From: an uncultured Psychrobacillus sp.
Lineage (GTDB): Bacteria; Bacillota; Bacilli; Bacillales_A; Planococcaceae
Assembly (NCBI GenBank): GCA_934234185.1
Contig: CAKQHO010000004.1
Coordinates: forward strand, 15,576 to 79,575
Direction: 5' to 3'
DNA length: 64,000 nucleotides
The translations under genes and the position numbers were made by a program. This document shows positions 4,431 to 61,036 of this stretch, in pieces; the stretch's first letter is position 1; every line of letters starts with the position of its first letter. The notes beneath the pieces were generated by a model. That model did not search any database, was not told the DNA's origin, and worked only from the letters and a program-made list of their open reading frames with translations.

Positions 4431-5327
4431 TTATCTCGTTCTTTTACAGCTCTTCGCTGTTGGTATATCATTGCTAATCCAAAATCCAGCGATAGATAGG
4501 ATAAACAAAGCAAGATTAAACGTAAAGGGATTGAACGGGTGTGTTAATATACCCGGATCAGCAAGGATTGCTGATAGAGTCAATAAAGGAAAAAGAATTA
4601 GTTGAAGTCCAAATAGTTTTTTCTTCCTTCGATAAAACAGCCATACTAGGCCAAATAATATTTCAAGGGCTCCTATTGTGTGCAGCATGGATGTACCCAT
4701 TGAAAAGGGAGATAATGCAGTTAGCATGCGTAGCTCCTCTGGATGAGTCCATACTATTTTGGGAATTAGACCTTGGTATACCCAGATGATAAAAAATAGA
4801 ATAGTAATCATCCAATACAAAAAGAATCGAGTATATTGTGCTCTTGGGGATTCTTTTTTTTCAAGCCATCTTTTTAGGACATCGAAGCTAAGTGCTGTGC
4901 CCCAGCCCATTCCGGGACGAAAAAGATACTTGTCTACTAGTCTTCCAAATGCTCCAAAGTTCGATTGATAATCATACTGGGTTAAAAACTGTATGCTATC
5001 CTCTTTAGGTATGTACTTCCAATAGCCTTTTCCTTCTCGGATAGGGGAGAGTCTTTGAGTTGTTCCGAAATGCAAGGAGCTTGTCCTGGAATGGTCCTTT
5101 GCATGAAATGACCCTACACTTTTTCCCCAGCCAGCAATACTATAGCCAGGAATTATGTTTGTCTTATATTCAAATAACTGAGGCTCGTTATCTATTTTAG
5201 GCAAATAGTTGATAGAAGAAAATCGTACATCCCACTGCTCATGTAAGGAAGGGGTTTGGGTTGCTTCCCAGAGCTCTTCCATAGGCGCTTCAATGTTAAT
5301 TTCTACATAAATAGGCTTTGTTTTCAT
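4431..5327 (-). CDS. SRPBCC-domain / DoxX-like membrane fusion protein
   Basis: Soluble N-terminal half followed by about four C-terminal TM helices ('FFLYWMITILFFIIWVYQGLIPK...'). First gene of a three-gene minus-strand operon. Confidence 0.45.
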   Translation of the reverse strand: MKTKPIYVEINIEAPMEELWEATQTPSLHEQWDVRFSSINYLPKIDNEPQLFEYKTNIIPGYSIAGWGKSVGSFHAKDHSRTSSLHFGTTQRLSPIREGKGYWKYIPKEDSIQFLTQYDYQSNFGAFGRLVDKYLFRPGMGWGTALSFDVLKRWLEKKESPRAQYTRFFLYWMITILFFIIWVYQGLIPKIVWTHPEELRMLTALSPFSMGTSMLHTIGALEILFGLVWLFYRRKKKLFGLQLILFPLLTLSAILADPGILTHPFNPFTFNLALFILSIAGFWISNDIPTAKSCKRTR

Positions 5328-9152: not shown

Positions 9153-9255
9153 TTGTAATCTTCTCCTTGAACATTCTACTTAATCGAGCTTATTTGCTTT
9201 TGAATGAAAAAAGCACCTAGAAGTTTCCTTCTAGATACTTGGTTAGTAACATCGC

Positions 9256-10032
9256 TTATTTTCCTTTGAACACAGGCTTACGCTTTTCAGAGAATGCATT
9301 CAATGCTTCTACTCGGTCCTCTGTTGGAATGGTGATTTCATAAGCTTTTCTTTCAATATGTAGGCCAGTTTGTAAATCCACATTCATCCCATGCTTCACT
9401 GCAAACTTTGCTTGCTGTAAAGCAATTGGTCCGTTAGCAAGTATTAGAGCTGCGAAGCTTTCTGTTTCTGCTTTCAAATTTTCACGGCTTGCAACTTTGG
9501 TTACTAGTCCATAGGAAAGCGCTTCCTCAGCTTTTAATCTTCTAGCGGTAAGTATTAGTTCTAGTGCTTTTGCTTCTCCTATTAGTCTAGGAAGTCTTTG
9601 TGTCCCTCCGGCTCCTGGGATAATCGCAAGGCTAGTTTCTGTTAAACCCATTAGGATATCATCTGCAGCAATACGGAAATCACACGCTAAAGCAAGCTCA
9701 GTCCCTCCACCAAACGCGTAGCCATTTAGCATCGCAATTGTAGGCTGAGGTAAATTTTCTATTTTAGAGAAGACCTCTCCTATTTTAAAAATATTTCTCT
9801 TTACTCGTTGCTCGGTCAATGTTTTTCTTTCCTTTAAATCTGCCCCGACACTAAAGGATTTTTCTCCGGAGCCAGTATAAATTACTAAGCGGATATCTGG
9901 ATTAATACGAATAGATTCAGTGATTTCCTCTAACTCTTTTAGCATTTCATAGTTAAAAGCATTTAGAGCATTTGGTCTGTTTAATGTCACGTATGCAATA
10001 TTCCCCTGCTGCTCATATCTAATTGTCTCCAC
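9256..10032 (-). CDS. enoyl-CoA hydratase/isomerase (crotonase family)
   Basis: 258 aa with 'FSVGADLKE', 'GYAFGGGTELALACDFRIA' and 'GLTETSLAIIPGAGGTQRLPRLIG' oxyanion-hole motifs. Confidence 0.85.
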   Translation of the reverse strand: METIRYEQQGNIAYVTLNRPNALNAFNYEMLKELEEITESIRINPDIRLVIYTGSGEKSFSVGADLKERKTLTEQRVKRNIFKIGEVFSKIENLPQPTIAMLNGYAFGGGTELALACDFRIAADDILMGLTETSLAIIPGAGGTQRLPRLIGEAKALELILTARRLKAEEALSYGLVTKVASRENLKAETESFAALILANGPIALQQAKFAVKHGMNVDLQTGLHIERKAYEITIPTEDRVEALNAFSEKRKPVFKGK

Positions 10033-10170
10033 AATTGATCCCCCTTGCTAATTTTATATTACTACCTTATCATTTTATGATAATTCTGTCATCAAATGTA
10101 AAAAGAGGTCGATTTTCATTTTTCAGTTTGGTACAATTATAATATTAAAAAGTAGATTAGAGGTCCAAAT

Positions 10171-11400
10171 ATGGAAATTTTTATTGCTCGACAGCCGATT
10201 TTCACCAAAGTTGAATCTATTTTTGGCTTTGAGCTACTCTATAGAAACAATGAAAATAATACCTTCCCTAAAATAGATGGCGACACTGCTACCTTAGACG
10301 TACTAACCCATTCCTTTTTAACTATAGGAATAAATGAGCTTGCAGGAGACAAGCTTTGCTTTATAAATTTTACAGAAAACCTTCTGGAGAGGGAGGTTTT
10401 AAAAAAACTTCCACCTAACAGAATTGTAGTAGAAATTCTTGAAGATATTATCATTACACCAGCCCTTCTTGACAAAATCCGTCGAATAAAGGCACTTGGT
10501 TTCTTAATAGCATTGGATGATTTCGTATTTACGCAAAAAGCGGAAAATTATGCGGAGCTTTTCAAACTTGTAAATTTTATTAAAGTAGATTTTCTAGCAA
10601 CCCCCTTGAAGGAAAGACGAGAACTAGAATACATTGTAAAGAAAGAATATCCTCATATTGTTTTACTTGCTGAAAAAGTAGAGACTCGCATTCAGTTTTA
10701 TGAAGCGAAAACTTCCGGCTATAGTCTCTTTCAAGGTTATTTTTTCGCAAAGCCAGAGATTGTAAAGGCTGCAGAAATTCCTCATAATTTGATGAGCTAT
10801 GTGCGTCTGATTACTATGCTTCGTGATGATAGTGTAAATATTGATGACGTGGCTGTGGAAATCGAGCGGGATGTCTCTCTTACGTATAAAGTGTTGAAAA
10901 TGATTAACTCGCCAGCTGTACGGACCAAATCGAAGGTCCGATCCATAAAACATGGAGTTCTGTTACTTGGTTTAGAGGAGTTAAATCATTGGCTACATGT
11001 TTTATTATTAAGAGAATCGCGGGCAAATAAAGAAAATGATGCTATTTTAGAGGCTTCTCTATTTAGAGCGAAATTTTGTGAACTACTAGCTAAGAGAAAC
11101 CGTAAATCAAACTCCTCTGAATATTTTTTAATGGGAATGTTTTCTTTGATTGATACGTTGCTACAACGTAGTATTCATCAATTAGTAAAAGAGTTACCAT
11201 TATCAGATGAGGTTGCTGCTACACTTTCCGGTGATTCGACAGAAATGACTGCTTATTTACAGCTGGCAGTTGCTTATGATGAGGTGCGATGGGATGCTAT
11301 GATAGAGGGTGCTTCCGCATTGGAAATAGACTTTTCTATTTTAAATAGCTATTATACAGTGGCTCGCAAATGGTCTTCAGATATTATTTCGGAATTATAA
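10171..11400 (+). CDS. EAL-domain + HDOD-domain protein (c-di-GMP phosphodiesterase-like)
   Basis: N-terminal 'ARQPIF...FGFELLYR' and 'VVEILED' EAL signatures. C-terminal 'VLKMINSPAVRTKSKVRSIKHGVLLLG' is an HDOD signature. Its 409-aa length matches B. subtilis YuxH/PdeH-type proteins. Confidence 0.7.
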   Translation: MEIFIARQPIFTKVESIFGFELLYRNNENNTFPKIDGDTATLDVLTHSFLTIGINELAGDKLCFINFTENLLEREVLKKLPPNRIVVEILEDIIITPALLDKIRRIKALGFLIALDDFVFTQKAENYAELFKLVNFIKVDFLATPLKERRELEYIVKKEYPHIVLLAEKVETRIQFYEAKTSGYSLFQGYFFAKPEIVKAAEIPHNLMSYVRLITMLRDDSVNIDDVAVEIERDVSLTYKVLKMINSPAVRTKSKVRSIKHGVLLLGLEELNHWLHVLLLRESRANKENDAILEASLFRAKFCELLAKRNRKSNSSEYFLMGMFSLIDTLLQRSIHQLVKELPLSDEVAATLSGDSTEMTAYLQLAVAYDEVRWDAMIEGASALEIDFSILNSYYTVARKWSSDIISEL

Positions 11401-38121: not shown

Positions 38122-38715
38122 TTATTTTTTTATATCATTGCGTTCCAAAATTTTATCAATTAGACCGTATTCTTTCGCACGCTCTGCAGTCATGAAGTTA
38201 TCGCGGTCTGTGTCTCTCGAAACGATTTCGATTGGTTGACCAGTGCTTTCTGCCATGATGTGGTTTAATTTGTCACGTAGGAACAAGATGCGTTTTGCAG
38301 CGATCTCGATTTCTGTTGCTTGCCCTTGTGCTCCGCCAAGTGGTTGATGAATCATAACCTCTGCGTTAGGAAGTGCGTAGCGTTTTCCTTTTGCTCCAGC
38401 AGTTAGAAGGAATGCACCCATGGATGCAGCCATACCGATACAAATTGTTTGTACATCTGGCTTGATGAATTGCATAGTGTCATAGATTGCCATACCAGCA
38501 GTTATACTTCCGCCAGGGCTGTTGATGTAGATAGAGATATCCTTTTCTGGATCCTCTGCTTCTAGGAATAATAATTGAGCAACGATAGAGTTAGCCACGT
38601 TGTCATCAATTGCGCTTCCTAGCATGATAATACGATCTTTTAATAATCGTGAGTAGATGTCGTAGGCACGTTCTCCACGATTTGTTTGTTCAATAACTGT
38701 AGGTATTAAATTCAT
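38122..38715 (-). CDS. clpP: ATP-dependent Clp protease proteolytic subunit
   Basis: '[34 protein letters not shown]', catalytic '[11 protein letters not shown]', 'MIHQPLGG'. Confidence 0.98.
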
Positions 38716-38936: not shown

Positions 38937-39036
38937 TCGTACTGCGATAGCGCAGCGATACCTACGTAGTATTCTTTCGCTTAAAATACTACGTAAGAAT
39001 ATGACGTAACCTCCAATACCTCCGTTGATTCGCGTA
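38937..39036. repeat. left-arm repeat cluster (candidate arm-type recombinase/RDF binding sites)
   Basis: tcgtactgcgatagcgca (38937-38954) and atactacgtaagaatatgacgtaa (38986-39009) recur at 60801-60818 and 60777-60800. There is an internal palindrome, tacgtagtatt (38963-38973) / aatactacgta (38985-38995). aatacctccgttgattcgcgta (39015-39036) is inverted relative to 60870-60890. Confidence 0.75.
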
Positions 39037-40029
39037 ATAACGAATTGGACGGGGGTTTTTATATTGTCACGAAAATCAATACAGAAGTCGTTGGTAAACG
39101 AAATCAATAGGGCGGTAGGAAGAGAAGATAAGGTGAGTGCCGTTTCCTTTGTGGATGCCATTGATACGTTTATTAATAACGGAGAAATAAAAGGACTCTC
39201 TGAACGTACATTATTCACTTATAACCACGAATTAAAACGTCTAAACTTGCATTTTATTAAAAACGGTGTAGACACGTCGGACATACTTAATATTCGGGAG
39301 TCACATTACGAACAGTTTGTAACTGATTTGCTTAAAGCAGGGTACGCGAGAACTACGATAGGTATGCGTCTTCAGACGGCCAAGATTCTTGGGAACTTTT
39401 GTGTCCGTAAGGGTTATATACCTAAGAATTACGCGGCGGAGGTGCCATCATTAAAGGTGAGAAAAAAGGTTGGCGATACTTTTACAAAGTCGCAACTTAA
39501 GCGTATCTTGGCTTCTCCTGATGTTACTACCTTTGAAGGTTTACGTGACTTAACGATGATGTTGGTATTTTCTGATACAGGCATTCGGTTGAGCGAATTG
39601 CAAGCCATCAAAATTAAAGATATTGTATTCTCTGACAATGCTTTAAATGTTCAACGTACAAAGAACGGCTATGCCCGGCGTATTCCACTTACAAAGCGTT
39701 TAGGAGACGTTTTAAGGCTCTATCTACAAGTCAGAGGTGTGGAAGATGCAAATGACTTACTCTTTGTTAAATCGGATAATACGGGCATTTCTCAAGTGAC
39801 TATACAGTTTCAGATACGTGAACATGGACGTAGAAGCGGTGTTATTAAACAAGTCCAATGTAGCCCTCACGTATTCCGTAGAACATTTGCTAAGTTTAAG
39901 ATACAGGCAGGGGTAGACATATTTACTTTACAAGCACTAATGGGTCACAGTGACATAGGAGAGTTGCGTAATTACGTCGCTGTTTATTCTACTGATTTAG
40001 ATGCCGCGATAGAAAAGGGGATAGATTAA
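39025..40029 (+). CDS. tyrosine recombinase / integrase (Int1)
   Basis: Catalytic signature 'TGIRLSE' (Arg), 'HVFRRTFA' (HxxR), 'LMGHSD' (His), 'RNYVAVY' (Tyr). Adjacent to attL. The true start is uncertain; GTG at 39133 follows AGGAAGAG. Confidence 0.88.
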   Translation: MIRVITNWTGVFILSRKSIQKSLVNEINRAVGREDKVSAVSFVDAIDTFINNGEIKGLSERTLFTYNHELKRLNLHFIKNGVDTSDILNIRESHYEQFVTDLLKAGYARTTIGMRLQTAKILGNFCVRKGYIPKNYAAEVPSLKVRKKVGDTFTKSQLKRILASPDVTTFEGLRDLTMMLVFSDTGIRLSELQAIKIKDIVFSDNALNVQRTKNGYARRIPLTKRLGDVLRLYLQVRGVEDANDLLFVKSDNTGISQVTIQFQIREHGRRSGVIKQVQCSPHVFRRTFAKFKIQAGVDIFTLQALMGHSDIGELRNYVAVYSTDLDAAIEKGID

Positions 40030-43300: not shown

Positions 43301-43397
43301 CGATTAGCTAACGAAAAGTTAATGAAGCCCTAACGGACAGTAATTTTTGCGGTGTATTAGTTTTAGTATATTGCTAGAATTTGAATTAAAGGGAGGG

Positions 43398-44369
43398 ATG
43401 ATTGTGGTACGAAAAAAATCTGTATTTACAGTGACAGATGATTTATCAGATGTATTTAATAATCTAACTATCAAGTCAGATGTAACTGTACTAAAGGCAT
43501 TAGAAATAATTCTTAAACAAATGAAAACAACTGGCAATCGTGAAAGGACTCTCTATGATTATGACAAACAAATAAACCATTTCGTTAGGATTACAGGAGT
43601 GGTAAATATCTCTGATATAACAGTTTTTCACATTTACGATTGGATTGAGAGTATGGAAGTAAGTAATGTAACTAAGTTGACCCGTTTGAAGTGTCTTAAA
43701 GCTTTCTTGAATAGATGCTTTAAACTTGGTTGGTTATCTATTCAATTTTGGAATGACATAAAAATTAAAGTTGATAGCCCGATAAAAGAGGGAGCGACAG
43801 AACAAAATGTTCAAACTTTATTAAGACATTTGGATTTTAATGATTTTTTTCAATTACGCGATGCTACAGCTATTTTGACTATGTATCAGACTGGTATTAG
43901 AATTGGTACATTATCGAAAATCACAGAGGGACACATTGACTTAGAGGAAAATGTATTACGAATACCTGGTTCAATAGTAAAAAATCATGAAGAGTTAATA
44001 CTGCCCTTTGACGATGTCTTAGCTCGTTTATTTACGGTACTATTTAAACAAAATGCCATTGTCAGAAAGAATGCAAACAGAAGTAATCAATTGGTATTTA
44101 TAACGAGAAGTGGCGGCTCTAGTCAAAATACAGCGATGAAGAATAACATAATTAGTAAACGTATTGCTCAATACGCTAAAAAATTCAATATAGAAAACGT
44201 TAATCCGCACGCTTTAAGACGTGGATTTGCAATAAATTTGCGAAAAAAGGGTGCTAATATATCACTAATTTCTAATGCATTGGGACATAGTGATTTATCG
44301 GTAACCACACGTTATTTACATTACGATAAATTAGAAATCGCAGAAGAATTACGCAATTTTCTCAAATAA
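43398..44369 (+). CDS. second tyrosine recombinase / integrase (Int2)
   Basis: 'TGIRIGTLSKI' (Arg), 'HALRRGFA' (HxxR), 'LGHSDLSVTTRYLHY' (His, Tyr). Lies in an AT-rich patch. The start is ATG 43398 or GTG 43404, after AAGGGAGGG. Confidence 0.85.
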   Translation: MIVVRKKSVFTVTDDLSDVFNNLTIKSDVTVLKALEIILKQMKTTGNRERTLYDYDKQINHFVRITGVVNISDITVFHIYDWIESMEVSNVTKLTRLKCLKAFLNRCFKLGWLSIQFWNDIKIKVDSPIKEGATEQNVQTLLRHLDFNDFFQLRDATAILTMYQTGIRIGTLSKITEGHIDLEENVLRIPGSIVKNHEELILPFDDVLARLFTVLFKQNAIVRKNANRSNQLVFITRSGGSSQNTAMKNNIISKRIAQYAKKFNIENVNPHALRRGFAINLRKKGANISLISNALGHSDLSVTTRYLHYDKLEIAEELRNFLK

Positions 44370-44410
44370 ATGACGCCTTTCCGAGAAACTTTCGGCCAGG
44401 CGTCTTTTTT
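44365..44410. terminator. bidirectional terminator between int2 and the repressor gene
   Basis: GACGCCT ... AGGCGTC stem flanked by AAATAAA on one side and T6 on the other. Confidence 0.7.
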
Positions 44411-44623
44411 CTATTTACTTTCATTTTTTGAATAGAAAATAATATCTTGCACATTACAATCTAACGCCTCGCAAAGTTTTTGAAGAGTATCAAACTCAAT
44501 TCCATTATTTCTTCCATTAATGATCTTTGATATTCCATTTCTGTGTAGACCCGTCTTTTCTGCAAGGGTACTTATAGTGAATCCTTTCATTTTCATTGTT
44601 TCTTTTAATTTAATAACTATCAT
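44411..44623 (-). CDS. XRE-family repressor (CI-like)
   Basis: 70 aa. 'FTISTLAEKTGLHRNGISKIINGRNNGIEFDTLQKLCEAL' has the HTH_3 pattern. It is divergent from the operator-containing region. Confidence 0.8.
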   Translation of the reverse strand: MIVIKLKETMKMKGFTISTLAEKTGLHRNGISKIINGRNNGIEFDTLQKLCEALDCNVQDIIFYSKNESK

Positions 44624-44666
44624 TTTATGACCTCCTAGTAGATTCTGCTATAAATTATACTATTAG

Positions 44667-44767
44667 CACACTATAGTGTGAATGTAATTTTAAAAAACTT
44701 TTAAAATACTGTTGACTTTGCACACTATAGTGGTTATTATTGGATTAAGAGGTAAACACTATAGTGG
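44667..44767. promoter_or_regulatory. genetic switch: three CACACTATAGTG operators and a rightward sigma-A promoter
   Basis: O1 is cacactatagtgtg (44667-44680), a perfect 14-bp palindrome. O2 is cacactatagtgg (44721-44733) and O3 is aacactatagtgg (44755-44767). The promoter is TTGACT (44712-44717), 17-nt spacer, TATTAT (44735-44740), with O2 inside the spacer. Confidence 0.75.
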
Positions 44768-44797
44768 TTACTAAGATGTGTAAGAAGGGAGATAGAA

Positions 44798-44932
44798 ATG
44801 AGGGTGATACGAAAATTAGATAATTATTTTCTCGGGACTGGCGAAGCAAGTGTAACAGATCGCATTTGGTTTTATGGAACATATTTAACAGTAATTACAA
44901 TAACAATCGGAATAGGAGAGAGTTTAATATGA
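44798..44932 (+). CDS. 44-aa hydrophobic peptide, first gene of the rightward operon
   Basis: Not in the ORF track (under 60 aa). ATG follows AAGAAGGGAG. Sequence 'MRVIRKLDNYFLGTGEASVTDRIWFYGTYLTVITITIGIGESLI' has one predicted TM. Its stop overlaps the next ATG (ATGA). Confidence 0.45.
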   Translation: MRVIRKLDNYFLGTGEASVTDRIWFYGTYLTVITITIGIGESLI

Positions 44933-45213
44933 AAAACAATAGAGTTACACAATTAGTATTCGATGTAGATGGAAGCGTAATGTCGGTATGTGAAACGATC
45001 ACTCTTGCGGTAGGCATTAAAGCGGATATTTACACGGCGCCAGGTGCTACTAAGCCTCGCGAAATTGTTTTGACTATTGGTGACGATAGTATCGAAATGA
45101 CATACTCGGAAGAGCTTGCGGAAATGCTTGATAAATTACATGAGGTTAGTGCATTAGAACTACTGACGGCTTGCTATCGTACTCTATGGCAGTCTAAGGC
45201 GAAGATAGCGTAA
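44929..45213 (+). CDS. hypothetical protein
   Basis: ATG at 44929 is coupled to the upstream peptide. 94 aa with no recognisable motif. Confidence 0.55.
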   Translation: MKNNRVTQLVFDVDGSVMSVCETITLAVGIKADIYTAPGATKPREIVLTIGDDSIEMTYSEELAEMLDKLHEVSALELLTACYRTLWQSKAKIA

Positions 45214-45578
45214 TGGAAAGTCACGATAGCTATGCGACCCAACTATTCGACCTGTACGAAAGTACAAAAGCCACTAGCCAACGTCTAGTCCGAGAACTAT
45301 CGAAGTACGACCGTAATCTAAGTGCTTTCTATCACGATGTTGAAACGAAGGACATAGCACCTGCGGATGCGCCCGAGTACATGAAGGCTCTGCAAAACAT
45401 TCTTTTGAAGCGCCGAGCAATCAAGCAGGAAATGCACCAGATAGACATAATCGAAAGAAGCCTTCGCACTAGCATAGACGCGTTAGAAACGAAGCGTTAT
45501 AAGGCTTTCAGACGAATCGAAAAGTATAATCGTTCGTTAATCTTGCCAATAACGATAAGTGATGTGCTACACGATTAA
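45213..45578 (+). CDS. hypothetical coiled-coil protein
   Basis: 121 aa. TAATG overlap with the upstream gene. Confidence 0.6.
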   Translation: MESHDSYATQLFDLYESTKATSQRLVRELSKYDRNLSAFYHDVETKDIAPADAPEYMKALQNILLKRRAIKQEMHQIDIIERSLRTSIDALETKRYKAFRRIEKYNRSLILPITISDVLHD

Positions 45579-45596
45579 AAACGGAAGGGTGAGTAG

Positions 45597-45743
45597 ATGG
45601 ATGAATTAATTAAGTTAGCCGAGGAACTGAGCCGTAAAATACGAGACAATGGAAAGCAGATTGATAACCCGGCGATGGTTATGTCGGTGCTGAACGAACT
45701 GGAATTTTTCATCGAGAACATCAGCTCTGACGATAACGAATGA
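45597..45743 (+). CDS. 48-aa hypothetical protein
   Basis: Not in the ORF track. ATG follows GGAAGGGTGAG. 'MDELIKLAEELSRKIRDNGKQIDNPAMVMSVLNELEFFIENISSDDNE'. Confidence 0.45.
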   Translation: MDELIKLAEELSRKIRDNGKQIDNPAMVMSVLNELEFFIENISSDDNE

Positions 45744-45776
45744 TTGACGATAACCTTAAAGGAGGTGAGGAACGAA

Positions 45777-45932
45777 GTGAAGCGTGAGCCCAAGGAGGAA
45801 CTTATCGAACATCGCGGCTGGGTGTCAATCGAGCCTGCAGGAACGAAAAGGAATAAACAAAGGATGGCCGCTTTAATCGCCCAACTAGATAGAATCGCTG
45901 ACCTTGCCGAAGGAAAGCGAAAAGCTAACTGA
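45777..45932 (+). CDS. 51-aa hypothetical basic protein
   Basis: GTG at 45777 lies 6 nt after AAAGGAGGTGAGG. Confidence 0.45.
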   Translation: MKREPKEELIEHRGWVSIEPAGTKRNKQRMAALIAQLDRIADLAEGKRKAN

Positions 45933-46040
45933 TTACGTATTTATTATCGTACACTTGCGAGCAAACTCTCTGACATCTGCGTTAGTGTACACTCAATGCG
46001 ACTCTTTAAGCCGATGGGAATCGAAAAAGTTTCATATAAA

Positions 46041-46198
46041 ATACTCGCGCCAACGAGTATGAATACGGTGTGACTGCGCCAACAGTAACGCCAATCGAAA
46101 TTACGCCAATAGTTTCGATGAACTTAATATAGTAACTTGCGCCAACAGGTTACGAACGAAGAGGGATGTCGCGCCAACGATGTTCCTCTTTTTTGTTG
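46041..46198 (+). ncRNA. candidate structured RNA (or ssDNA element): five hairpins with invariant CGCCAA hexaloop, the last one terminator-like
   Basis: H1 46041-46060 ATACTCG[CGCCAA]CGAGTAT. H2 46071-46088 TGACTG[CGCCAA]CAGTAA. H3 46094-46119 ATCGAAATTA[CGCCAA]TAGTTTCGAT. H4 46133-46152 TAACTTG[CGCCAA]CAGGTTA. H5 46160-46189 AGAGGGATGTCG[CGCCAA]CGATGTTCCTCT followed by TTTTTTGTT. The stems differ in sequence but stay complementary, and the G-T wobbles work only on the plus strand. Confidence 0.45.
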
Positions 46199-46206
46199 CA
46201 CTTAGT

Positions 46207-46221
46207 GGGGGTAGCGTCCCC
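46207..46221 (+). other. GC-clamped hairpin with TAGCGT loop (ssoA CS-6-like)
   Basis: GGGG[G]-TAGCGT-CCCC sits immediately downstream of the CGCCAA hairpin array. TAGCGT equals the CS-6 hexanucleotide described for ssoA-type single-strand origins, as I recall it. Confidence 0.3.
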
Positions 46222-46492
46222 TTCTATAGTAGAGCGGAAAAAGTCAATGTAGCAATTTAAAGTGTTCAAGTAGCAGTATGAAGTAGAAGGTTAAAAATAC
46301 TGTGCGAAACAGATTACGACTGTATATAAGACTATATAACGTAATCAATGATGCAATTTCGTTATGTCTACCGTCTATACGAAATAGGATGTCTTTTAAA
46401 TTTACCCTACATCTTAGTTTATCAGACGCCTATAAGGTTGGGAAATGCCGTACAAAGCTATTGAAACGTATCTAGCTAAATTGAGGAGGTAA

Positions 46493-46585
46493 CTCCGCAC
46501 TAGCGATTCTCAAACGATATAACTAGTAGGGGAAGTTCTCCGAAAAGCTCCGCACTAGCGATTTTCAAACGTTAATACTAGTATA
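46493..46585 (+). repeat. two ~38-bp direct repeats, 55 bp apart (iteron-like)
   Basis: ctccgcactagcgattctcaaacgatataactagta (46493-) and ctccgcactagcgattttcaaacgttaatactagta (46548-). Each contains an ACTAG...CTAGT inverted pair. Confidence 0.75.
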
Positions 46586-46773
46586 GGCTAATTTCTTTCT
46601 AGCATATATACGAGAGCAATCGGACAAGGTTTCACTTTTTCAATAATATTACGATTCAATCAAGACGGATGCCATAATTTAACCATTTAGCTGCCTATAT
46701 AGGTGAGGAAAAAGGGGTTGCGTTTTTTATTTACTTATCTAGTCTTAAATTTATTTCAAAAGTAGGTGATTCG

Positions 46774-47001
46774 ATGAAGTTGACCGCAAAGGATCTAGAG
46801 GATATTCGTAATTACTATGCTATCAGTCAGTCGCAACTGGCGGAGAAGCTTGGCATATCACAGTCTTACGTAGCACATATGGAGCGCAATGCTAGACCTA
46901 TTCCAGCGTACGTAGCGGACAAGCTAGAGATAACGCCTGAACGTTTAGAAGCAATTAGGAGCGCAGCTTATGAACGAGAAAAGTTTATTAACGAAAAGTA
47001 A
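46774..47001 (+). CDS. XRE-family HTH protein
   Basis: 'AISQSQLAEKLGISQSYVAHMERNARPIP' has the HTH_3 pattern. RBS AGTAGGTGA. Confidence 0.7.
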   Translation: MKLTAKDLEDIRNYYAISQSQLAEKLGISQSYVAHMERNARPIPAYVADKLEITPERLEAIRSAAYEREKFINEK

Positions 47002-47020
47002 TCGTAAAGGTGGTCGTAAT

Positions 47021-47206
47021 ATGGCAATGAAACGAATTAAGTCGTTATGGCTTGCAAGAGCGTTAATAGCGAAGGGATATAACGTTGTAGATACCGACAA
47101 AGAGGGCGAAGATATCGTATGGTACTTTAACGACTCGACCGAGTTTAATCGTACAGTAGGCGAGCTAATAGACGCTAATAAACGAGATAAAGGTTATCCA
47201 CGTTAG
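47021..47206 (+). CDS. small phage-associated protein (DUF5659-like)
   Basis: ATG at 47021 lies 6 nt after AAAGGTGG. 'LWLARALIAKGYNVVDTDKEGEDIVWYFNDSTEFNRTVGELI' resembles the DUF5659 pattern as I remember it. Confidence 0.4.
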   Translation: MAMKRIKSLWLARALIAKGYNVVDTDKEGEDIVWYFNDSTEFNRTVGELIDANKRDKGYPR

Positions 47207-47446
47207 AAATTAATTATCTACGACCGATCCGACAAGCTTTGCTTGGAGGTATGTTTTGAACTAATAACGCCACTAACTAAAACATAGCTCCACAATAAAA
47301 TTGTGTCGCATATGCGTTAAAAATAAACGCTATTTTTATTTAAGGGAGACACGCTACAAACCGCGGTATATCAACGTTTCTAAAAATTTTTGCGACTTTT
47401 TTTTCGCAGAATAAGTTATGATTTCGAAAATTAGGAGGCGGTAATA

Positions 47447-48652
47447 TTGACGGAAATAACAGTAGTAGATGCGGTAATGGGAAGCGGTAAGACGGAGTGG
47501 GCGATTCGATATATGAACGAAGCAAGTCCAACGGAGCATTTTATCTATATAACGCCATTCCTTGCGGAAGTAGAGCGTGTTAAGAAGAGCGTCACAGGGC
47601 GTACTTTCGTAGAGCCTACCATTTATAATGGGACGTCTAAACTCGAGGATTTGAAGCGTCTGATAGCGTCTGACAGGGACATCGTAAGTACACACGCATT
47701 ATTCGCTCGTGCTGACGAAGAAGTAATCGACTTATTGGAGCAATCGGGCTATACGCTGATACTTGACGAGGTGATGGACGTAGTAGACAGCGTTGCGATA
47801 AAGAATACGGATATAAGACGTCTACAATCTAACGGAGACATACTCATCGACAAAGAAACAAAGCGCGTTAAATGGACCGGGGATCCTGACGATAACAGTC
47901 GCTACCGAGACATACGAGAACTTGCACAAGCGGGCAATTTATACGTATTCCGTACATCGTTCATGGTATGGGCGTTTCCGCCAGCAGTATTTAAGGCGTT
48001 CCCGAAAGCTTATGTATTAACGTATCTATTTAAATGCCAGATGCAGCGATATTACTTCGATATGTTCGGCTTCGAATACGCATATAAGAGCGTTGCTATG
48101 GTAGAAGGCGATTATAGGTTGATAGATTACGATGTAAAGCGCGAGAGACGAGAAGAACTGTATAACTTAATCGAAGTCTACGAAGGCAGATTGAACGATA
48201 TAGGAAACGGCAAGTTTGCACTAAGCCAAGCGAAGCTAAAGAAGTGTGACGGTGGATTCCTCGATTCAATAAGGAATAATACGGCAAACTTTTTCCGCCA
48301 TTACGCTAATGCGAAGAAAGCGGACGCATATCTATCTACGCTAAAGGAAGTGCAGGGCCTAGTAACGCCAAGAGGCTTTAAGTCGTCGGTCATTGCGCAT
48401 AACATACGAGCTACTAACGAGTATTCGGACAGATGGGCGGTCGCATACCTGATTAACCGATTTATGAATAAGGACAAAATGGCGTTTTTCCAAGATAACG
48501 GTGTATCGGTAGACGAGGACCTATATGCAATATCGGAATTATTACAGTGGATTTGGCGCTCGAGAATCAGACGAGGGGAGCCAATCAAAGCGTATATTCC
48601 TGCGGAGCGAATGAGGGGACTACTAAAAAGATGGGCTAATTACGAAATCTAA
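47447..48652 (+). CDS. P-loop NTPase, SF2-helicase-like
   Basis: TTG start after TTAGGAGGCGG. Walker A 'AVMGSGKTEWA', Walker B 'LILDEVMD', 'VSTHALF' (motif III-like), and 'QWIWRSRIRRGEPI' (motif VI / arginine-finger-like). Confidence 0.55.
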   Translation: MTEITVVDAVMGSGKTEWAIRYMNEASPTEHFIYITPFLAEVERVKKSVTGRTFVEPTIYNGTSKLEDLKRLIASDRDIVSTHALFARADEEVIDLLEQSGYTLILDEVMDVVDSVAIKNTDIRRLQSNGDILIDKETKRVKWTGDPDDNSRYRDIRELAQAGNLYVFRTSFMVWAFPPAVFKAFPKAYVLTYLFKCQMQRYYFDMFGFEYAYKSVAMVEGDYRLIDYDVKRERREELYNLIEVYEGRLNDIGNGKFALSQAKLKKCDGGFLDSIRNNTANFFRHYANAKKADAYLSTLKEVQGLVTPRGFKSSVIAHNIRATNEYSDRWAVAYLINRFMNKDKMAFFQDNGVSVDEDLYAISELLQWIWRSRIRRGEPIKAYIPAERMRGLLKRWANYEI

Positions 48653-50451: not shown

Positions 50452-52566
50452 ATGAGTCAAGACATAGTAGTAAAAGTTGGAGCCGACGTATCCGATTTAC
50501 AAAAGAATCTATCGTCGGCAGTTTCAAAGATTCAGAGTTTAGGAAGCGATTTGTCTGCGGTAGGCAGGAGTATGGCAACTACATTCGGAGGAGCGACATT
50601 AGCCATTGGTGGAGGTTTAACATATGCGATAAAACAAGCGGCAGACTTCGATAGTCAGATGCGTAAAGCAGGAGCTATCGCGGGAGCATCAGCAAAGGAA
50701 CTCGATGCAATGCGAGATGCGGCTCTCGATTTAGGGGCAAAAACTTCTGAATCTGCTAGCAGTGTCGCGGTGGCAATGACGGAGATGGCTGCGAAGGGGT
50801 TTAATGCAAACCAAACGATCGCCGCAATGCCGGGAATTATTGCAGCTGCAGAAGCGTCAGGTGAAGATTTGGCATTATCGGCTAATACTGTTTCCTCCGC
50901 ACTTAATATATGGGGCTTAGAGGCTTCTGAAGCGAGTCGAGTTGCTGATATTTTAACTGTGACCGCGAACGAATCAGCAGCAGGAATGCAAGATATGGCT
51001 CTGGCCCTGAAGTACGCTGGCGGGCCAGCAGCGGCGTTAGGAATTTCTCTAGAAGAGTTATCGGCTTCTATTGGCCTAATTGTTGATAGTGGGATTGACG
51101 GGTCTACGGCGGGTACTGCGCTTCGTGCGTCATTATTGGCGCTTAACAATCCGGCAAAAGCACAGGCAAAGATAATGGATAATCTAGGATTCTCAATGAT
51201 TGATGCAAAAGGTAACGCTAAAGGCTTATCAAAGATGATTGCAGACTTGGCGGAATCTACTGCGCACATGTCCGAAGCGGATAAAGTCGCTACGATTGCA
51301 AAACTAGTAGGCACCGAAGCGGTATCGGGCTTTTTAGCACTTATGAAGGCAGGTCCTGACGCTATCGACGCTAATACCGAAGCGCTTCGTAATAGTGAAG
51401 GCGCGGCAAAGGAAGCATCAGACGCAATGAAAAGCGGTATCGGCGGTGCCCTTGAAAATATGATAGGCGCTTTCGAAACTTTATCAATCAAGATTGGTGA
51501 CCAATTAATCCCGTACGTTAAAACTGCAGCGGAATGGCTTGCGGCACTTGCGGACAAGTTCTCAAATTTAAGCGAGGGTACACAAAAGTTCATAGCGGTA
51601 GGAACCGCGATGGTCGGCATTTTTACAGGAGTTATAGCGGGAATAGGCGTTCTAATGATGGCGGTGGGGTCGGTTATTACAGGGTTTACCGCATTTACCG
51701 GGTTACTAGGATCGCTAGCAGGGGCGCTAGGTATTACTGGCGGAGCAAGTGGACTGCTGGGAGCCGCTTTCGGTGTCTTAACTGGACCAATCGGAATTAT
51801 AACAGCAGCAATCGCAGGGATTATCGCGGTAGTCGTATTAGCCTATAAAAATATCGATTGGTTCCGAGAGGGAGTAAATAACGCATGGGCTAAGGTGAAA
51901 GAGGCGACAAGCAAGGCATTCGAAGCAGTAAAGAAAGTCATTTCTACGATTGTAAGTTCGGTAGTCTCGGCTACTAAGGCGCAGCTAGATAAGTTCGTAG
52001 CGTTTTGGGACGAGAATGGTAAGGCGATTATAGACATCGTTAAGTTTGCCTTCGACGACATCGTTATGAAGATAAAGCTGGCGTTGGGAATTATCAAAGG
52101 CGTATTCGAGATGGTGTGGCCTCTTATAAGTGCGACGGTAAGATACGCATGGGAAACAATCAAGCTAGTCGTATCCACCGCAATCAATATCGTACTTGGA
52201 GTTATTCAGACGTTCCTGAAACTAATGCAAGGCGATTGGAAGGGCGCTTGGAATACGATTAAAGAAATACTGATTGCGATATGGGACGATATAGGCGCTT
52301 TCCTGAAAGGTATCAGTCTCGAACAGACGGGTAAGGACATCATCAACGGACTAATCAAAGGTATCGCGTCGATGGGAGGAGCTATATTAGATGCCGCAAA
52401 AGGTCTAGCGAATAGTATTCCTGCTGCAGTTAAGTCAGCCTTAAAGATACATTCTCCTATTAAAAAGTCGAGTCCAAAAACAAAGCGCAAAGCAAACCGG
52501 TTAAAAGAACTCTTAGTAAGCGCAAAAGTAGATAGTATTTCAATTAAAGAGGTGTATTCTCGTTGA
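50452..52566 (+). CDS. phage tail tape-measure protein (TP901-family core)
   Basis: 'FDSQMRKAGAIAGASAKELDAMRDAALDLGAKT', 'VADILTVTANESAAGMQDMALALKYAGGPAAALGISLEELSASIGLIVDSGIDGSTAGTALRASLLALNNP', followed by a Gly/Ala-rich hydrophobic segment. This is the classic TMP core pattern. Confidence 0.85.
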   Translation: MSQDIVVKVGADVSDLQKNLSSAVSKIQSLGSDLSAVGRSMATTFGGATLAIGGGLTYAIKQAADFDSQMRKAGAIAGASAKELDAMRDAALDLGAKTSESASSVAVAMTEMAAKGFNANQTIAAMPGIIAAAEASGEDLALSANTVSSALNIWGLEASEASRVADILTVTANESAAGMQDMALALKYAGGPAAALGISLEELSASIGLIVDSGIDGSTAGTALRASLLALNNPAKAQAKIMDNLGFSMIDAKGNAKGLSKMIADLAESTAHMSEADKVATIAKLVGTEAVSGFLALMKAGPDAIDANTEALRNSEGAAKEASDAMKSGIGGALENMIGAFETLSIKIGDQLIPYVKTAAEWLAALADKFSNLSEGTQKFIAVGTAMVGIFTGVIAGIGVLMMAVGSVITGFTAFTGLLGSLAGALGITGGASGLLGAAFGVLTGPIGIITAAIAGIIAVVVLAYKNIDWFREGVNNAWAKVKEATSKAFEAVKKVISTIVSSVVSATKAQLDKFVAFWDENGKAIIDIVKFAFDDIVMKIKLALGIIKGVFEMVWPLISATVRYAWETIKLVVSTAINIVLGVIQTFLKLMQGDWKGAWNTIKEILIAIWDDIGAFLKGISLEQTGKDIINGLIKGIASMGGAILDAAKGLANSIPAAVKSALKIHSPIKKSSPKTKRKANRLKELLVSAKVDSISIKEVYSR

Positions 52567-58152: not shown

Positions 58153-58824
58153 TTATAGCGGTATATTATATAGAAGAAACTCCGTTTTACTGATGTCCGA
58201 TAATGCCGAATTTTGCACGATTTTCGCTATATTTTAACGGGCATAACTGTGCACTTTTCGTGTTAGATTACGTTATATTTTTTGCAATTTTAACTCGTCA
58301 AAACACGTCAAATCCATCGGAGTACATCGGAGTAAATAACGATAATTTCATGCAAGTTGGCGCAAGTTTTATCGTACATTATCAGACTATAACCGCAAGT
58401 TTACTAAAATGACGTAATTAGCTTCGTTTATATAGAAGGAATGCGGATTCTACGGTTTAGTACGCTTTAGTTTATGGTTGCGATTTCTTGCGATTTATCA
58501 GGCGACTTGCTGCCGCGTGCGAGAGTCCAAACGCTTTAAACGTGTCCATCGGTTCGATTATCGTACTAGGTCGATGTAAACTAACGAAATATTATCGCAG
58601 TATATAGAAGAAAGCCGTAAATGGCGTTTTACATACGTTGTCACTATGAGCATATCGCAGGGTTCAATCAGGCGATCCGTTCACCAGGCGATGCCTTCGA
58701 AAAACCGAGGGGTCGCATAACGTTATTATCGAATAGCTATATAGAAGAAACTGCGTAATTATGATGCGACTATTTGCGACTCTACTCGGAACTAGCGCAA
58801 TTATCGAAGGTTATATAGAAGGAA
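58153..58824 (+). repeat. iteron field: five TATATAGAAGRAA boxes, four of them preceded by ATTATMG
   Basis: Boxes lie at 58167-58179, 58429-58441, 58601-58613, 58738-58750 and 58812-58824. ATTATAG/ATTATCG lies 3-7 nt upstream of boxes 1, 3, 4 and 5. The region also holds CAGGCGA three times (58499, 58669, 58685) and TTGCGATTT twice in tandem (58478, 58488). Confidence 0.8.
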
Positions 58825-60951: not shown

Positions 60952-60980
60952 CTTGCCCCTGTAGTTTAATGGATATGACG
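60952..60980 (+). repeat. attR core: 29-bp direct repeat (start of the intact tRNA-Arg)
   Basis: Identical to 38872-38900. Confidence 0.9.
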
Positions 60981-61026
60981 TAAGATTCCGGTTCTTGAGA
61001 TGGGGGTTCGATTCCCTCCAGGGGCG
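60955..61026 (+). tRNA. tRNA-Arg (anticodon CCG)
   Basis: Manual cloverleaf. Acceptor GCCCCTG/CAGGGGC. D arm GTT(T)-AATGGATA-(T)GAC. Anticodon stem TAAGA/TCTTG with loop TTCCGGT. T arm GGGGG-TTCGATT-CCCTC. Discriminator G. CCA is not encoded (TCA follows). Confidence 0.85.
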
Positions 61027-61036
61027 TCACATAGAA

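Follow-up and report, generated by a model that had tools for sequence, protein, structure and literature searches.

Why should five consecutive hairpins with unrelated stems all carry the same six-base loop? The question is posed by a 64,000-nucleotide stretch of contig CAKQHO010000004.1 from an uncultured Psychrobacillus sp., here called the window, in which an element resembling an integrated phage contains an array of stem-loops at 46041-46198 whose loops all read CGCCAA. We find that this five-hairpin array is a real, conserved and hitherto unannotated structured element. It is very probably an RNA element, and it represents a new, undescribed family within a known kind, the multi-hairpin RNAs that display a loop; its function is putative. 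As to what the loops do, we tentatively favour pairing with the loops of another RNA.

The hexamer CGCCAA occurs six times on the plus strand at 46048-46177, with copies starting at 46048, 46077, 46089, 46104, 46140 and 46172. There are 34 copies on the two strands of the whole window, and about 0.04 copies per strand would be expected in 160 nt. Five of the six copies hold the hexaloop position of a hairpin, and the five stems are unrelated in sequence. The hairpins, numbered H1 to H5, are as follows.

46041-46060, plus strand: H1, a 7-bp stem with loop CGCCAA
46073-46086, plus strand: inner part of H2, a 4-bp stem with loop CGCCAA
46067-46092, plus strand: extended H2, 9 bp in total, with a 5-bp outer helix beyond a 1x1 internal loop (a G·A mismatch)
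46094-46119, plus strand: H3, a 10-bp stem with one G·U pair, loop CGCCAA and closing pair A-U
46132-46153, plus strand: H4, an 8-bp stem with one G·U pair and loop CGCCAA
46158-46191, plus strand, with a T-run to 46198: H5, a 14-bp stem with four G·U pairs (three internal, and the outermost pair) and loop CGCCAA

The remaining copy (46089-46094) is partly taken up by the 3′ arm of the H2 extension. When the plus strand was folded as RNA, the predicted structure consisted of exactly these hairpins, with a folding energy of -56.7 kcal/mol (z = -3.83) that was equalled by none of 200 shuffled sequences. The RNA fold of the minus strand was unremarkable (z = -0.10), and the plus strand reached only z = -1.51 under DNA parameters. 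H5 together with its T-run was scored by a terminator scan as a plus-strand intrinsic terminator. On both strands of the window, hairpins whose stem had 4 bp or more and whose loop was CGSCAA or TTGSCG were found only in the array, apart from mirror images of H1 and H2, and none of the other terminator-like hairpins between 44300 and 47500 had a CGCCAA loop. The first-pass annotation of this DNA had described five stem-loops with different stems and identical CGCCAA loops, the last of them terminator-like, and the motif count, the fold and the terminator scan bear this out. The stems are somewhat longer than its range of 4-12 bp. It had also listed every non-Watson-Crick pair as G-T on the plus strand; its counts hold for H3 and H4, with one each, but H5 has four rather than three when the outermost pair is included.

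Read on the minus strand, H1 (46060-46041) is followed by TTTATAT, and the scan flags a terminator-like site there. The array could additionally halt leftward transcription at H1; no leftward promoter was predicted near H1.

Related loci were sought through a protein encoded downstream of the array, a 401-aa P-loop SF2-like protein, referred to below as the helicase, which has the precomputed Pfam label PF27199 (YonV_C) and about 40% identity to YonV of SPbeta/phi3T. YonV-like proteins have thousands of relatives, chiefly in Bacillales. Of the loci fetched (designated L and a number), 80 came from reference genomes, four from viral contigs and 80 from metagenomes, and about a dozen close relatives were added by exact protein look-up; the flanks of the fetched loci cover only about 6 kb. 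Hairpins with CG[C/G]CAA loops on unrelated stems were found on the plus strand of the corresponding gap in Lysinibacillus (L122, L134, L162), Sporosarcina (L132), Brevibacillus (L148), Paenibacillus (L136), Evansella (L142) and Ornithinibacillus (L171), and in the uncultured contigs L200, L202, L206, L210, L219 and L291. The module was found in related elements of at least eight genera. Across 92 loci we collected 89 distinct hairpins with differing stems, 60 with a loop of the kind seen in the window (sense; almost all C[G/U][C/G]CAA) and 29 with a complementary loop described below. At least one motif hairpin was present in 43 of the 92 loci, and at least two in 21 under strict criteria, or 23 by a slightly different count.

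The association of the motif with the loop position is strong. In 87 loci, the 3 kb preceding the helicase gene contained 185 plus-strand copies of CGSCAA, of which 51 (27.6%) were flanked by at least four paired bases; elsewhere the proportion was 3.0% on this strand and 2.8% on the opposite one. Per-position pairing agreed with this enrichment. The earlier proposal of selection for structure together with loop identity is therefore upheld. Among upstream hairpins of the form C-NN-CAA with stems of at least 5 bp, NN was GC in 28, GG in 21 and UG in four, and any other dinucleotide occurred at most once. The closing pair of the sense loops was G-C in 43 of 69 cases and A-U in 17, and the centre-to-centre spacing of the motifs clustered at 24-39 bp. 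Stem pairs of the 60 sense-loop hairpins comprised 373 Watson-Crick, 47 G·U and six A·C pairs. When both classes were combined on the transcribed strand, G·U pairs outnumbered A·C pairs by 81 to 9, compared with a ratio of about 1 expected from base composition; the plus strand is thus the folded strand, as had been claimed from the window. The terminal motif-bearing hairpin is itself a terminator in the window, L122, L219, L292, L134, L162 and L125, and related loop variants lie within the terminators of L132, L157, L123, L210 and L207. Strand-specific folding, the use of G·U pairs, the position within an operon (see below) and the terminal hairpins that are terminators all point to RNA rather than single-stranded DNA (ssDNA) as the working molecule, and the invariance of the loop on variable stems indicates that the loop is the functional surface.

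The array is not present throughout the family. No array was found in L120 despite 77% identity of its helicase to that of the window, and since some close relatives lack it the array module is accessory. SPbeta/phi3T and a Macrococcus plasmid with distant YonV homologues have no such hairpins. A metagenome scan for further helicase loci yielded one additional array only, that of L219. When the arrays were aligned across loci and the downstream gap was searched with nhmmer, only the loops aligned, so there are no orthologous columns to which a classical covariation test could be applied.

No known RNA family accounts for the array, in agreement with the first-pass annotation. In a search of the whole window against Rfam 15 only a tRNA passed, and at E ≤10 over 45800-46800 the only match was to cow-rumen-1, with 13.9 bits against a threshold of 53.4. 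The same search on 11 related array-bearing loci gave only tRNA, tmRNA and one group I intron. Blastn of the array region against phage and plasmid collections gave no match, and nothing relevant was found in the literature on the loop sequence, YonV or PF27199. A pattern scan of viral contigs was discarded. Its matches to GCGCCAAC...GCGCCAAC...CGCCAA were nearly all coding tandem repeats with a period of 12 or 15, and the two low-GC matches, L038 and L071, were CGTTGGCGCAGC coding repeats and contained no hairpin arrays.

At the same array position, some of the related loci (L137, L139, L153, L123, L157, L292, L207-209 and L296) have plus-strand hairpins with the loops UUGGCG, UUGCCG or UUGCAG. 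Each of them is exactly the reverse complement of one of the three sense loops. In UUG-NN-G hairpins the dinucleotide is GC in 15, CA in seven and CC in four, precisely complementary to the sense set. The complementary-class arrays occupy the same position and orientation as sense arrays. Their hairpins are not opposite-strand readings of sense arrays, because their non-Watson-Crick pairs are G·U on the plus strand (188 Watson-Crick, 34 G·U and three A·C pairs in 29 hairpins) and several are plus-strand terminators, in L157, L123, L292, L134 and L162. They are often closed by U-A or U·G pairs, as against G-C and A-U in the sense class, and this bias indicates that the complementary class has RNA-level preferences of its own.

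The class can change between close relatives. Helicases that are 76-82% identical accompany different classes, sense in the window and L206 and complementary in L292, L157 and L207. Homologues of the early proteins likewise span both classes, sense (window, L206) and complementary (L207, L157, L292, L296), which argues against an early protein ligand specific to one class. Most arrays are of a single class, and the mixed arrays inspected combine non-cognate loops, such as CGCCAA with UUGCAG or UUGCCG (L134, L162); such mixing fits avoidance of pairing in cis. The only clear cognate pair within a single locus was seen in L132, where a 10-bp hairpin at 5045-5070 displays UUGGCG, the perfect complement of three upstream CGCCAA loops. 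This hairpin lies just past the second of two promoter-like repeats and about 30 nt before the next open reading frame (ORF).

The setting of the array in the window is given by the following features.

38122-38715: clpP, followed by the integrated mobile region
39025-40029: first tyrosine integrase gene
between the two tyrosine integrase genes: two overlapping genes of FtsK/SpoIIIE-like and Replic_Relax-like type, and a gene for a TrbC-like small membrane protein
43347-44369: second tyrosine integrase gene
44411-44623, minus strand: Cro/C1-type HTH repressor-like gene, 70 aa (Pfam HTH_26, E = 2.6e-17)
44682-44654, minus strand: predicted promoter, divergent from the following one (promoter scan)
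44712-44740, plus strand: TTGACT-17-TATTAT, which the promoter scan predicts (10 of 12 matches) as a sigma-A promoter for the early rightward operon
44866-45932, plus strand: four small early ORFs of 115 or 94, 121, 48, and 62 or 51 aa (ORF list, matched by the gene calls on an identical contig)
right of the array: downstream block of an HTH gene, a 78-aa ORF and the gene for the 401-aa P-loop SF2-like protein (47447-48652)
50452-52566: tape-measure-like gene, 704 aa
right of the helicase gene, besides the tape-measure-like gene: genes of tail-chaperone-like, HNH, Cys-rich and resolvase type
60954-61028: tRNA-Arg(CCG), at the right edge of the window's element

The repressor-like gene marks the immunity switch of the element and is context, no part of the RNA. 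The coding-free gap extends from 45933 to 46773, and gene calls on an identical metagenome contig also leave this gap (842 nt) empty, as the first-pass annotation had it. From the array to the next gene there are about 580 nt, and no promoter was predicted between H5 and that gene. The H5 terminator, the lack of a predicted promoter before the next gene and the gene-free gap together place the array at the 3′ untranslated end of the early rightward operon. We infer that this operon is transcribed, and that the array forms its non-coding 3′ tail in an integrated phage-like element.

The same layout recurs in the relatives: an integrase gene adjoining a tRNA or tmRNA gene, a Cro/CI-type repressor gene read the other way, between one and four small ORFs that evolve fast, a non-coding gap of 400-900 nt, then HTH and small ORFs, the YonV-like gene and genes of structural type. 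The array stands 3′ of the one to four early ORFs read from the divergent promoter, within the gap before the helicase block. The integrase gene of L132 is next to a tRNA-Arg(CCG) gene (1736-1807); other relatives adjoin tRNA-Leu, tRNA-Ser, a tRNA cluster or tmRNA. Many relative contigs are about 16-18 kb long, and L210 carries a SU10-type major capsid gene (9527-10615); no capsid family was matched among the ORFs of the window's element that were scanned. The elements look like small temperate phages or capsid-encoding satellites. Among co-occurring genes only the Cro/CI-type repressor stood out, with homologues in 16 of 16 hairpin-bearing loci against 25 of 69 others, an association that is confounded by relatedness. 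A cold-shock-domain protein was encoded in just five of 16 array loci.

With these elements in hand, the mechanism that we favour can be set out. Transcription from the promoter at about 44712-44740 would pass through the four small ORFs and yield five tandem hairpins, each showing one hexaloop (family consensus C[G/U][C/G]CAA, with a closing pair that is mostly G-C or A-U), and would end at H5, at once motif hairpin and terminator, ahead of the helicase-gene block. The stems would serve only to hold the loops out, and the loops, as the working surface, would kiss an RNA bearing the complementary hexaloop UUG[G/C][C/A]G, as found in sister elements at the same position. The likely effect would be to titrate or interfere with a target RNA, such as a host RNA or the early transcript of a related element or phage present in the same cell. 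Kissing complexes in which two hexaloops pair completely occur elsewhere, as in TAR/TAR*. One RNA-binding protein cannot recognize CGCCAA as well as UUGGCG, and none of the early proteins follows the class, so base pairing is the simplest explanation that covers both classes. The window has no complementary-loop hairpin and the related loci showed no consistent target, so the partner would come from elsewhere: the host, a phage or another element. Its patchy occurrence speaks for an array with an accessory task, for instance in competition, exclusion or anti-defence, and less for a core switch. A multivalent loop-display RNA that acts in this accessory way by loop-loop pairing, with a hypothetical partner, is the account to which we would give most credit, at somewhat less than an even chance; that the loops pair with a nucleic acid, what they pair with and to what effect are inferences.

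Several observations weigh against loop-loop pairing. The multi-hairpin loop motifs known so far in bacteria mostly bind proteins. A hairpin with a complementary loop and a stem of at least 4 bp occurs nowhere in the 64-kb window, and a search of the related elements for a conserved target of the loop, near start codons and in the helicase mRNA, gave nothing consistent. Perfect cis-cognate hairpins were found only in L132 and L219; both lie beyond the terminator, and that of L219 is inside an ORF and probably due to chance. The complementary class could also have arisen by template switching between stem arms, which inverts the loop, and have persisted as mere structure; the differing closing-pair preferences show that the two classes are not simple mirror images. 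The first-pass annotation had suggested a kissing antisense regulator with a partner at 58356-58368, a 13-nt complement to part of H4. That partner is not supported, as a 13-nt complement arose in 50 of 500 shuffles of the array, a second, unrelated 13-mer exists and the site forms no hairpin; the match is at chance level. The kissing-loop logic itself gains from the exactly complementary loops at the same position in relatives.

A more specific version supposes a three-pair RNA code (CGCCAA/UUGGCG, CGGCAA/UUGCCG and CUGCAA/UUGCAG) used by element against element or against the host. It would operate either through multivalent kissing of early transcripts, those of rival elements or those of a satellite and its helper, resulting in exclusion or incompatibility, or through shielding or mimicry of tRNA anticodon loops as an early anti-defence. 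UUGNNG is complementary to positions 33-38 of tRNA anticodon loops ending in C36-A37-A38, and CNNCAA loops copy these positions with C replacing U33; the tRNA-Gly(GCC) gene of L162 (Lysinibacillus) reads UUGCCAA at its anticodon loop. The tRNA idea may explain which loop positions are fixed and which vary, and the resemblance may equally be coincidence, as a six-base loop is no anticodon loop. We regard the code as decidedly improbable.

The explanation that competes most directly with loop-loop pairing is a protein platform, in which an RNA-binding protein, encoded by the element or by the host, binds the repeated hexaloops and either controls termination at H5 and so read-through into the helicase block, as in N-boxB/nutR-tR1 or ANTAR systems, or is titrated, as in CsrB. 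A loop that stays constant while the stems vary, together with a preferred closing pair, is the classic signature of protein-recognized hairpins, the site between cro-side early genes and the helicase block, at a terminator, mirrors lambda nutR/tR1, and in many loci it is the terminator hairpin that bears the loop. We nevertheless consider it unlikely, because reverse-complement loops, which one protein cannot read alongside the sense loops, stand at the same place with the same early proteins, and because no gene family tracks the array save the DNA-binding repressor, where phylogeny confounds the comparison. A boxA-like sequence upstream is confined to the window and is at background frequency, loop positions 1 and 4 are both C where ANTAR substrates have A and G, a GGA motif is missing, and loss of the array in some close relatives would be odd for a core antitermination device. 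The CsrB-like sponge among the roles first suggested survives as one form of this explanation, weakened by the complementary-loop class. Rather less credible is a dual constraint, under which the 6-8 bp GCGCCAAC / GTTGGCGC is an iteron-like duplex-DNA site, usable in either orientation, and the inverted repeats are separately selected as RNA hairpins for termination or stability. This would account for the presence of the motif in both orientations, and the mostly uniform orientation within arrays is what cooperative binding to direct repeats predicts; the spacing of 24-39 bp can be counted in its favour, as can the several HTH proteins encoded by the element and the FtsK/SpoIIIE-like protein of the window (identified by Pfam), whose Streptomyces relatives bind 8-bp clt repeats. 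It gives no reason, however, why a duplex site should always lie at the apex of an unrelated palindrome, and the motif is missing from the repressor's own promoter region. The FtsK-like gene of the window was matched in four of 80 loci and later seen in L206 and L292, with no match in most array loci, and the dependence of the closing-pair preference on orientation points to RNA-level selection on the loop context.

Two further explanations dispense with RNA recognition altogether. The hairpins might form on displaced plus-strand DNA and there act as a single-strand origin, load a primase or helicase, or signal transfer; a role in transfer or replication (oriT/sso) had also been proposed in the first-pass annotation. 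Strand-specific folding is equally expected of such a signal, plasmids have hairpin-dependent priming signals, and the array lies upstream of an SF2-type helicase-like gene in a window that has a Replic_Relax/FtsK module. Yet the last hairpin is in many loci an intrinsic terminator with its T-run in the direction of the flanking genes, the array is oriented with its operon, and G·U-type pairs make up about 11% (sense) and 15% (complementary) of stem pairs, a level typical of RNA. The fold stands out as RNA and not as DNA (z-scores above), the hallmark ssoA loop TAGCG[T/A] is not enriched, most array loci lack a tblastn match to the window's Replic_Relax/FtsK proteins in the fetched flanks, and five tandem nick or priming sites would be unusual; an ssDNA role is thus disfavoured and very improbable. 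Least of all do we expect a passive structure, that is, a tandem insulator or 3′-end stabilizer in which the identity of the loop has no function. The position at the operon 3′ end, the many terminal hairpins that are terminators and the apparent tolerance of loop flips would suit it. It fails to explain why the loop is kept across at least eight genera while all stems differ, why other terminator-like hairpins at 44300-47500 lack the loop and the loop forms no other hairpin in the window, and why the variable loop positions use only three complementary dinucleotide pairs.

The array shares features with several known systems. Lambda nutR/tR1 resembles it in belonging to a rightward early transcript, in following cro-side genes, in having a terminator before replication-type genes and in the recognition of a hairpin loop. 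Lambda, however, has one short hairpin, preceded within a few bases by boxA, whose GNRA-like pentaloop is bound by the arginine-rich N protein, compared with five hairpins and the hexaloop CGCCAA here; in the present family boxA is not conserved, the terminator carries the loop, complementary-loop alleles exist and some relatives lack the array. A boxA-like sequence, CTCTTTAA, was found 39 nt upstream of H1 in the window only; upstream of 23 arrays there was one match in 4.6 kb (0.22 per kb), against a background of 0.15 per kb. No N-like protein was identified, and no conserved early protein was specific to a loop class. CsrB/RsmZ sponges share the display of one short loop motif on several hairpins, the 3′ terminator hairpin and a multivalent logic. 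They differ in that the array loops lack GGA, that no promoter of its own was found for the array, which is therefore not predicted to be a stand-alone small RNA gene, and that the array is borne by a mobile element; the complementary-loop class also argues against a single protein ligand. ANTAR dual-hexaloop RNAs are likewise tandem hairpins with six-base loops by an intrinsic terminator in Firmicutes. In these RNAs loop position 1 is A, position 4 is G and the second hairpin overlaps the terminator; in the array both positions are C, and H5 is the terminator itself and not a competitor of it. There was no ANTAR protein among the proteins scanned and no Rfam match.

Kissing antisense regulators (CopA/CopT, RNA I/RNA II, P4 CI RNA and P1 c4) would be a parallel in mechanism, the likeness resting on short, exactly complementary hairpin loops; the immunity-region RNAs of P4 and P1 stop downstream gene expression. 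In the array, by contrast, the complementary partner lies outside the same locus, and only the plus-strand fold is maintained. No minus-strand promoter was predicted in 46200-47500 (consensus promoters only), which together with the minus-strand fold (z = -0.10) and the rarity of A·C mismatches on the plus strand only counts against a cis antisense pair, and Rfam C4 and related models gave no match. The five iron-responsive elements in the 3′ untranslated region of the transferrin-receptor mRNA offer an analogy only, with five differing stems and one conserved hexaloop in an untranslated 3′ end; they are eukaryotic and protein-bound, have the loop CAGUGN and bear no evolutionary relation to the array. 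Type III antitoxins (ToxI-like) consist of near-identical tandem direct repeats with a terminator and an endoribonuclease toxin gene behind them, unlike the array units, which share only the loop, and the HTH protein and small ORFs downstream of the array gave no match to a toxin family in Pfam or PHROGs. The pLS20 conAn2 and a zipper-type attenuator were considered and set aside, since they differ in architecture. For the comparison with Streptomyces-type clt, where the FtsK-like TraB binds 8-bp direct repeats, the window has four copies of GCGCCAAC plus the FtsK/SpoIIIE gene.

The ssoA origins and plasmid ssi signals share with the array strand-specific hairpins and conserved loop elements on mobile DNA; the array differs in being tandem, in having a terminator and in folding better as RNA. 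Just past the terminator, at 46203-46220, a small hairpin displays TAGCGT (46209-46214), identical to CS-6 in ssoA origins. TAGCG[T/A] loops were equally frequent on the two strands when all loci were compared (71/504 and 76/580) and were not biased in position, so the TAGCGT of the window is most likely due to chance; RSB was not searched.

Structured RNAs of Gram-positive temperate phages and phage-like elements are poorly charted, and this one is compact, easily mutated and placed at the decision point between the early genes and later genes including that for the helicase. The existence of paired complementary loop classes, in elements that otherwise have their early proteins in common, is unusual. 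If base pairing is correct, nature would here provide a multivalent kissing-loop system whose specificity code is small and readable; it could have a bearing on element competition, superinfection or interference with host RNA, and be a template for the design of orthogonal RNA-RNA recognition. If a protein reads the loops instead, the array would reveal a new RNA-protein recognition pair at a phage terminator.

The two tyrosine integrases of the window flank the module of FtsK/SpoIIIE-like, Replic_Relax-like and TrbC-like genes. The order FtsK-Replic_Relax-TrbC-integrase was found again in L120 and L206, and the FtsK/Replic_Relax/TrbC module in L157 and L292, with no adjacent integrase within the fetched stretch. 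Judging by this recurrence, the module seems to be a trait of a subfamily of the elements and no separate insertion. In tblastn searches the FtsK protein of the window matched four of 80 genome loci (L120, L152, L157 and L169), none with a sense-loop array. The FtsK gene and an array were combined only in L206 and L292, and most array loci gave no match to the Replic_Relax/FtsK proteins within the fetched flanks.

The gap 3′ of the array contains two direct repeats of 36 nt, at 46493-46528 and 46548-46583, of the form CTCCGCACTAGCGATT[C/T]TCAAACG...TA..ACTAGTA. Similar units follow the arrays or terminators of L132 (4844-4896 and 4994-5046) and L127 (4963-4992). The helicase-gene block may have its operator in these repeats, or a promoter of non-consensus type. 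A second repeated motif, TATATAGAAG[A/G]AA, occurs five times in the ORF-free region at 57.9-59.0 kb that had earlier been called an iteron field (58167, 58429, 58601, 58738 and 58812), and kindred TATA..AG..GGAAAA strings lie in the gap after the array (46224 and 46695) and after the array of L219 (about 1585). This motif could serve as a promoter peculiar to the element, or be a binding site present in several copies. A group I intron (Rfam RF00028, 70 bits) lies in L206, a close relative of the window's element, at 9251-9515, just 5′ of the tape-measure-like gene.

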